Source of the DNA: Escherichia coli
Lineage (GTDB): Bacteria; Pseudomonadota; Gammaproteobacteria; Enterobacterales; Enterobacteriaceae
Assembly (NCBI RefSeq): GCF_003334765.1
Contig: NZ_QOWT01000035.1
Strand: one strand, 5' to 3'
Length of the DNA: 40,549 bases
Shown piece by piece: positions 39,527 through 40,549 of the stretch. A model generated the notes under the pieces. That model made no database searches, was not told the DNA's origin, and saw nothing but the letters and a program-made list of their open reading frames with translations. The translations under genes were made by a program, and so were the position numbers. How positions within the stretch are numbered: position 1 is the stretch's first letter; every line of letters begins with the position of its first letter.

Positions 39527-39910
39527 TTATTTTCCGTGGCCAAAATTCAGAATTCTCCCATCATTTTTGCCTATTTCTATAATAAAAACCCCACCAGCAA
39601 TTTGGTCTGAGTGAATGGTACCTTCAACAACCCAACTTGTTGTTAACTCAGTGATTTCGTATGGTTTTTCTTCTTCTGCGGCATCCTGTCCATAACGATT
39701 CTTAACATATATCTCAGCTAATTCCAATGCTATAGCTTTATTTTTAACCAAATTTCTAACGGTATATTTACCTTCACTTTCATACTTGCGCATTATTTTA
39801 ATATTATTATTACACTGCGCCCATGTGTTGTATGTAAAAACAAACAAAGATACAATGACACAGTTCCTAAACAATATTTTTTTACATATTACCATGAACT
39901 CTGCAGACAT
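39527..39910 (-). CDS. ydcD: hypothetical protein, probable Rhs-tip immunity protein, 127 aa in this sequence
   Basis: AT-rich ORF overlapping the 3' end of the Rhs toxin-tip ORF by 29 nt, the typical toxin/immunity arrangement; hydrophobic N-terminus. No in-frame extension is possible upstream (stop 7 codons before the ATG). Confidence 0.7.
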
Positions 39911-40549
39911 TAGGTAATCCTTTTCTGTTTGTTATTTCCTTCCCGTGGTTATCTATTGCTTTAAAATTACCACTGGGCGTACCTAAATAAAATGACTTGA
40001 TATTGTTATCTTTACTTTTAACTATTTTCTCATCTTTACCTGAAAATATTTCGTCCCAATATTCTCCATGACTATCTGCACCATGAGTATGATAAGCTGA
40101 TACTTTCTCAGTACCATTAGGGCAAGGGCTATTGAATGGATATGATCCTTTTCTTTCTCCTCGGTTAGGTGCTGTTGAGAAATATCTGCCACTATTATCC
40201 TTACATATTAAACCAGCGAACTCTTTATCTTCGCAAATAGATTGGTTATTTATTTTATTTAAGGCGCCATATGCGGTGCTATCTATAGAATCAAATTTAT
40301 CTGGACCTATCATAGCGGATAGTGTGCCGCAAAGACCATTAGTACATGCCCCCGATTTTGCATCCTCCCACATAGATAAACCCAGGGGGTCGATGTCTGA
40401 TATCGGATTCAATTGATATCCATACAGGTTCCATCCCCCCTTCAGTCCAATCGGATCCTGAGTGATATATCGCCCCTGCAGCGGGTCATAATAGCGGTGG
40501 CGGTTGTAATACAGGCCGGACTCCTCATCATACTGCTGCCCCGGCAGGC
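39882..40549 (-). CDS. rhsE: Rhs protein, C-terminal end of core plus variable toxin tip (partial; 5' end outside window)
   Basis: Reading frame open to the window edge; translation ...[56 protein letters not shown] contains the conserved Rhs core terminus and DPxGL motif (40377..40391), followed by a ~165-aa AT-rich C-terminal domain. Confidence 0.85.

Follow-up and report, generated by a model that had tools for sequence, protein, structure and literature searches.

The 3' end of an rhsB-type element with a predicted JAMM-fold toxin tip and YhhH immunity protein, joined to the flank of the rhsE locus in an Escherichia coli contig

With reference to the stretch of Escherichia coli DNA analysed here (40,549 nucleotides, referred to as the window), the question arises as to which rhs element ends at its right-hand edge, what the C-terminal tip of that element and the small gene overlapping it are likely to do, and how they came to lie in the neighbourhood of nhoA. 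With good confidence, we consider the account as a whole to be that of the 3' end of rhsB, carrying a predicted zinc-hydrolase tip and YhhH as its putative immunity protein, with a proposed action in the periplasm and with a join to the neighbouring genes that probably stems from short-read assembly.

A minus-strand frame of 222 codons was read in the window, open from 40547 and ending with a TAA at 39882..39884, which agrees with the roughly 220 Rhs codons that the original prediction had counted. Its first 57 codons (40377..40549) make up the end of the Rhs core, as these residues matched the Rhs-associated core domain TIGR03696 at E 4.4e-21 (score 75.2, cutoff 32.5) and the last positions, 1205-1261 of 1261, of the RHS_core model NF041261 at E 2.2e-30; a single base, at 40548, differs from the core of K-12 rhsB. 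The core is closed by the PxxxxDPxGL motif (40377..40409), whose DPLGL is encoded at 40391..40377, exactly where it had been placed before, and the point after DPLGL is, by analogy, the presumed site of C-terminal autoproteolysis. This is followed by the AT-rich variable domain, earlier put at about 165 residues and counted here as 164 codons (39885..40376, minus strand), with a GC content of 0.32-0.36 compared with about 0.50 in the Rhs core. A search of this tip against toxin domain families, which had been proposed as a check, returned PF14220 (DUF4329, equivalent to Tox-JAB-2) at i-E 1.1e-39 over model positions 2-114 of 116.

The small ORF that follows on the same strand (39527..39910) has 127 codons and a stop, overlaps the rhs stop by 29 nt, and matched PF15631 (Imm-NTF2-2) over the whole model (positions 1-68 of 68) at i-E 3.4e-26; its protein carries the RefSeq accession WP_001271686.1, YhhH. 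The overlapping ORF of the original prediction is therefore real, and its name, given as ydcD, has to be replaced by yhhH. A Shine-Dalgarno-like AAAAGGA (39918..39924, minus strand) was read from the sequence 7 nt upstream of the yhhH ATG, within the rhs coding sequence, and a promoter and terminator scan of 39000..40549 gave fewer promoter-like sites than shuffled sequences, and neither a terminator nor an internal promoter candidate for yhhH. The matches of the frame, the core, the tip and the small ORF are well outside chance, and the combination of core end, variable tip and overlapping small ORF is, judged from these domain matches, a polymorphic-toxin module with the toxin/immunity architecture that had been claimed for it.

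The remainder of the gene lies outside the window, and was followed in sister contigs that reach further. In these, the rhs frame extends to 729, 1076, 1135 and 1411 codons, with matches to RHS_repeat and TEN_YD-shell, and the longest product is identical to K-12 RhsB at 1406 of 1411 residues (99.6%). A full-length gene of about 1400 codons, for which the original prediction had proposed to look upstream, was thus found in a sister contig, and of the PAAR/VgrG-linked N-terminus named in the same proposal only a vestige was recovered: the protein begins with MSGKPAARQGD, and a Pfam scan of its first 400 residues detected DUF6531 at E 4.8e-18 and the PAAR_motif weakly, at E 0.18, with nikR lying upstream and no vgrG adjoining. 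To our knowledge, the T6SS is absent from K-12-like strains. By analogy, the large YD-repeat shell, which is off the window, would enclose the 164-residue tip; the tip would be cut off after DPLGL and would be injected into neighbouring bacteria, via VgrG/PAAR in T6SS-positive strains. In the accessible literature, we found no experimental report on the toxicity, neutralisation, cleavage or delivery of the RhsB tip.

The alignments identify the element. Window positions 40547..37785 are 99.75% identical to the K-12 rhsB-yhhH-yrhC-yhhI region, and strain H3 matches 39100..40547 without a difference (100%) in its nikR-rhsB-yhhH-yhhI-yhhJ locus, one of the natural rhsB loci with the module flanked by nikR and yhhJ. 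Of the 5426 complete E. coli genomes, 2689 hold 80% or more of window 39100..40549. The tip differs from that of K-12 RhsB at two residues (D37G and S44N); the alleles found in the tip are those of natural rhsB loci, and some of the window's alleles are shared with natural isolates. Together with 11 SNPs in 37.8 kb, these alleles led to the rejection of K-12 MG1655 itself as the source of the window. On this sequence evidence, the edge of the window is the 3' end of an rhsB-type element. The remaining part of the window, from 1 to 39075, is collinear with K-12 MG1655 1,570,746..1,531,672 (gadB' to ydcC), with 33 mismatches and 0 indels, 11 of the mismatches being spread over the 37.8 kb of 1..37784 and 22 lying within the H-rpt element described below. 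Similarity to the K-12 rhsE locus breaks off abruptly at 39075, and when window 35800..40549 was compared by BLASTN with K-12 1524000-1536000, only 35800..39075 aligned.

Two features lie between yhhH and the flank. A yibA-like HEAT-repeat remnant of the Imm-HEAT type (39076..39437, minus strand), corresponding to K-12 yrhC, is interrupted by an in-frame stop and truncated by the H-rpt; residues 1-81 of 285 of NF007244 ('putative lyase') matched it at E 3.5e-31, and its RefSeq annotation is that of a HEAT repeat/lyase pseudogene. The H-rpt itself (ISEc1, ISAs1 family; 1291 bp, 37785..39075, minus strand) aligns to both the yhhI and the ydcC elements of K-12 and harbours an intact ISAs1-family transposase ORF of 378 codons (37795..38931, minus strand; NF033564, E 2.7e-125). 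Mapping of the SNPs showed this element to be a hybrid, being of the yhhI type (the copy at the rhsB locus) from 39075 to at least 38716 and of the ydcC type (the copy at the rhsE locus) from 38339 to 37785, with a single crossover within the 376 bp that both share (38340..38715). Through this crossover in a 1.3-kb repeat, the rhsB module is linked with pptA-yddH-nhoA, the flank of the rhsE locus.

Whether this join exists in a chromosome is a separate matter, and a short-read assembly chimera across the repeat is, in our judgement, probably its origin, more so than a true rearrangement. The alternative, that homologous recombination between the H-rpt copies of the rhsB and rhsE elements, in the manner of a 'rearrangement hot spot', moved a working RhsB toxin/immunity module beside nhoA in this lineage, is judged less likely. 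It is favoured by the clean single crossover in a stretch common to both parental H-rpt alleles, and by a search for the identical hybrid transposase, which returned draft contigs (over 20, of different assemblies) with yhhH, H-rpt and pptA in succession, including one of 191 kb that runs from nikA to nikR through full-length rhsB, yhhH, H-rpt and pptA up to narU. Complete genomes represent about 1-2% of all assemblies by our estimate, and 0 to 1 of them would be expected to carry the join of a rare lineage; a similar join was found in one of the 5426, that of Origami2-DE3. In that genome, however, the rhs piece breaks off 150 nt inside the core, next to the terminal 110 bp of an IS5 beside lnt, and the H-rpt is a three-way mosaic with some bases of neither parent; these features, like the rarity of the join among complete genomes, are counted against a rearrangement.

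Other observations tell against a rearrangement as well. The H-rpts at rhsB and rhsE are direct repeats 2.09 Mb apart in MG1655, so a single crossover between them would either excise the interval, which is lethal, or duplicate 2.09 Mb, and would not give a viable inversion. The contigs that bear the join show three haplotypes at the tip sites 40246/40267, and one of them has an nhoA flank diverging by 1%; therefore, the join arose more than once, in at least two flank lineages, a recurrence which assemblers produce easily and megabase events only with difficulty. Moreover, both edges of the window fall in multi-copy repeats, gadB at the start (about 100 nt into it) and the rhs core at the end (158 nt into it), and many sister contigs with the join (40,461-40,861 bp) end in the same gadB and rhs-core repeats, as is typical of a complete contig assembled from short reads. 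The reciprocal junction, yncI-H-rpt-yhhJ, was detected in none of the 5426 complete genomes and is also counted against a rearrangement. As a side remark, its absence taken by itself does not distinguish a chimera from a true but rare event.

Irrespective of the join, the tip was examined for its fold and likely activity. The AlphaFold (AF2) model of the tip has a pLDDT of 94.3 and, going by this model, the fold is JAMM/MPN+, a JAB/MPN, deaminase-like alpha+beta arrangement in which the E..HTH..S..D zinc motif is intact. On the minus strand, the motif codons are E52 (40223..40221), H96 (40091..40089), T97 (40088..40086), H98 (40085..40083), S112 (40043..40041) and D115 (40034..40032). In an alignment of 59 homologues, drawn from the 711 relatives described below, no variation was seen at E52, T97, S112 or D115, while H96 and H98 are each found in 58 sequences. 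Because the JAMM/MPN+ fold is combined with an intact E52...H96-T97-H98...S112..D115 site, we infer that the tip is a predicted zinc-dependent hydrolase of the JAMM type; the original prediction, according to which no activity was evident from the sequence, was too pessimistic in this respect, since a metallohydrolase fold with every residue of the catalytic motif can be recognised.

Regarding its relatives, an exhaustive search of representatives gave 711 DUF4329 domains at E<=1e-3, most of them situated after a DPxGL-type junction of a large toxin; a word-indexed homologue search with the tip and YhhH returned close relatives only, the distant DUF4329 being reached through the exhaustive search. 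In the enterobacterial subfamily, the cysteines C11, C16, C58 and C85 are present in nine of nine tips and C48 in eight of nine. Across the DUF4329 family C58 never occurs without C85 (20/20), as would be the case for a disulfide pair. A sequence search of the PDB produced nothing meaningful for the tip (best match internalin C, E 0.5) and zero matches for YhhH, and the PADLOC defence models gave no match.

The partner of the tip is equally consistent across loci. An Imm-NTF2-2 gene lies directly 3' of a Tox-JAB-2 toxin in the window, at K-12 rhsB, at K-12 rhsD and at four further loci, and the product of yhhH is, from its domain and position, the predicted cognate NTF2-like immunity protein of the RhsB tip. 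Residues 60-127 of YhhH make up the predicted NTF2-like domain, and residues ~1-31 resemble a Sec signal peptide, with positive charge, then a hydrophobic stretch, then a TWA/QC site (NTWA/QC). Signal-peptide-like N-termini of this kind were observed in seven of seven Imm-NTF2-2 proteins, namely YhhH, YbbC, a Salmonella homologue and those of four more subfamily loci, as judged by a heuristic of hydrophobicity and the -3/-1 site. All seven display the same layout of a charged n-region, a hydrophobic stretch and a small -3/-1 site despite widely differing sequences, and their best 10-residue hydropathy (KD) is 2.2-3.2, compared with 0.9-1.7 in five control proteins. The N-terminus of YbbC, MKYSSIFSMLSFFILFAC, is lipobox-like (LFAC).

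Immunity proteins are usually located where the toxin acts, as in the Tae/Tai and ColM/Cmi pairs. Because YhhH and all the homologues examined have an export signal, and because the tip cysteines are conserved, we infer a periplasmic site of action; in particular, the exported appearance of the immunity protein suggests that the toxin acts in the periplasm. There, the tip would most likely be an (iso)peptidase or amidase working on a cell-envelope substrate, candidates being, for example, the peptidoglycan cross-links or the Lpp-peptidoglycan link, and periplasmic YhhH would block it in that compartment. In its general form, that the RhsB and RhsD tips are non-nuclease periplasmic JAMM-fold zinc (iso)peptidases or amidases neutralised by Sec-exported or lipid-anchored YhhH/YbbC, this proposal is tentative, and we rate it somewhat short of an even chance.

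It has to be weighed against the view that the tip is a nuclease or RNase acting in the cytoplasm, with YhhH neutralising it in some way other than periplasmic co-localisation, which we regard as unlikely. That view is favoured by the argument that toxin JAB domains, which like RadC are without the Ub-tail tunnel, 'might function as nucleases' (Zhang et al., PMC3482391), and in later papers DUF4329/Tox-JAB-2 is listed as an RNase with citation of Ma et al. 2017. RadC is indeed among the fold neighbours of the tip model, and the small proteins encoded 3' of two distant DUF4329 toxins have no export signals. For the latter reason, exported immunity is not generalised here to all DUF4329, and a periplasmic site, if real, may be limited to the enterobacterial subfamily. 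Within that subfamily, however, the nuclease view is at odds with the signal-peptide-like N-termini of all seven Imm-NTF2-2 proteins (one of them lipobox-like) and their lack in the controls, and with the conserved and co-varying cysteines of the tips, and a 2024 preprint still describes the activity and the substrate as unknown. Taken together, the evidence favours a periplasmic metallohydrolase over the 'RNase' label of the literature.

Finally, the naming of the element as a possible truncated rhsE pseudogene of the K-12 type, with ydcD as its immunity gene, was derived from the neighbours nhoA, yddH, pptA and ydcC, which are arranged as at the K-12 rhsE locus and are all that speaks for it, and it retains practically no probability, as the DNA from 39076 onward is that of an rhsB element, direct alignment to K-12 rhsE, ydcD and yncI is absent beyond 39075, the frames in the sister contigs are long, and the identical proteins bear the RefSeq names RhsB/DUF4329 and YhhH. 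The ydcD of K-12 has 160 codons and is without similarity to the 127-codon PF15631 ORF.

Naming by context thus misled the earlier reading, and the same hazard exists where contigs spanning H-rpt repeats are annotated automatically. Likewise, the apparent presence of an RhsB tip at the rhsE locus, being probably due to a chimeric contig, calls for caution in pangenome and rearrangement studies built on short reads. The rhsB-yhhH pair is already known, as it is annotated in K-12 and its class, Tox-JAB-2/Imm-NTF2-2, was assigned computationally in 2012; the fresh angle of this study is only the exported appearance of the immunity protein. Export signals on all the Imm-NTF2-2 proteins examined offer a cheap and testable argument on a widespread toxin domain, which is present in E. 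coli and in a PAAR-Rhs effector candidate reported across more than 150 Salmonella serotypes. Periplasmic action, if true for the enterobacterial subfamily at least, would contradict the 'RNase' label copied through surveys of T6SS effectors, and the RhsB and RhsD tips would then be the first JAMM-fold envelope toxins.

In comparison with known systems, T6SS Tae/Tai, colicin M/Cmi and the Rhs-type Tse5/Tsi5 act in the periplasm and have exported immunity proteins, a likeness that is drawn by analogy and without homology. The JAMM/MPN+ isopeptidases (Rpn11, CSN5, AMSH, BRCC36, archaeal JAMM1, CBASS Cap3 and BilC) and RadC share 9-20% identity with the tip; unlike these isopeptidases, the RhsB domain stands at the C-terminus of a toxin and has extra N-terminal helices and cysteines. 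We know of no ubiquitin-like substrate in the periplasm. Zhang, de Souza, Anantharaman, Iyer and Aravind (2012; PMC3482391) described Tox-JAB-2 (DUF4329; E, H[ST]H, S and D; RHS-linked) as paired with Imm-NTF2-2 in 'E. coli only' and proposed a nuclease activity for it; in that paper, export signals of Imm-NTF2-2 are unmentioned, and Imm65, the partner of Tox-JAB-1, is the only lipoprotein immunity protein singled out.

Among the K-12 loci, the tip of rhsD is also a DUF4329 domain, sharing with that of RhsB its fold, its six cysteines and the E/HTH/S/D motif at about 50% identity, and its partner YbbC is an Imm-NTF2-2 paralogue of YhhH (48% identity), which also has an export signal. The rhsD-ybbC pair nonetheless belongs to another rhs subfamily and locus, YbbC having the lipobox-like LFAC where YhhH has its TWA/Q site, and the sequence divergence between the RhsB and RhsD pairs is large enough that cross-immunity should not be assumed. 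The rhsE-ydcD-yncI-ydcC locus has the same flank beyond the H-rpt (right half of ydcC, pptA, yddH and nhoA), with 11 SNPs in 37.8 kb relative to MG1655, whereas its rhsE-CT, ydcD and yncI are unrelated to the tip, immunity gene and pseudogene of the window. The K-12 rhsB-yhhH locus (b3482-b3483), together with yrhC and yhhI, has the same gene set, gene order and 29-nt overlap as the window over 2.76 kb of DNA, and differs in what follows: the right half of the window's H-rpt and the genes beyond it (pptA, yddH, nhoA) are those of the rhsE locus, whereas K-12 has yhhJ in that place.

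The H-rpt/ISEc1 element at window 37785..39075 was observed to be hybrid, part of it matching the rhsB-locus copy and part the rhsE-locus copy, with a single crossover placed within 38340..38715. The two loci that it brings together are directly oriented in MG1655 and separated there by 2.09 Mb. Of 5426 complete genomes, one shows the join made through this hybrid and none shows its reciprocal. Among draft contigs, more than 20 carry the H-rpt join, and their haplotypes differ.

The sole complete genome with the nhoA..H-rpt..yhhH join is that of Origami2-DE3 (NZ_CP084529.1, locus L002, 15273..17133), where the structure is odd. 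Its rhsB 3' piece includes 150 nt of the core and breaks off at a microhomology (CTGCTG), to be followed directly by the last 110 bp of IS5, by TTAG and then by lnt, a gene located at 0.688 Mb in K-12 and inverted at this join. The H-rpt of Origami2-DE3 harbors some bases that are absent from both K-12 copies (rhsB and rhsE). The Origami2-DE3 join is either a complex rearrangement of a laboratory strain or an artefact of assembly or polishing.

With reference to the ends of the window, the left one lies about 100 nt inside the 3' end of gadB (1..~102), gadB being a near-duplicate of gadA, and the right one cuts the rhs core, which is multi-copy, after 158 nt (40392..40549). Since both ends lie within these repeats, and sister contigs of 40,461-40,861 bp from other assemblies display the same content, the window looks like one whole short-read contig between repeats, the window edge being the contig edge. 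Additionally, the fdnI-yddM spacer (18344..18733) harbors a pair of direct repeats that overlap each other; each is about 214 bp long, they are approximately 95% alike, and both are also found in MG1655.

As regards the DUF4329 tip, among the 50 distant DUF4329 domains of alignment A1, both C58 and C85 (tip numbering) were noticed in 20, C85 alone in eight and neither in 22. Cysteine at position 58 thus never occurred without cysteine at position 85, a sequence pattern suggesting that the two form a disulfide pair, and that a large part of the DUF4329 family leads an extracytoplasmic life. Separately, downstream of the DUF4329 Rhs tip at L022, a frameshift splits the Imm-NTF2-2 gene (L022 1159..1459), so that its signal peptide and its first helix are read in one frame and the remainder in another; this immunity gene appears to be decaying.

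Beside the hybrid H-rpt, on the minus strand at window 39076..39437, lies the remnant of a yibA-like HEAT-repeat gene ("putative lyase", Imm-HEAT type), which contains an in-frame stop and is cut off by H-rpt. The rhsB element probably once had a second immunity gene, of which this is the decayed form; its equivalent in K-12 is yrhC.
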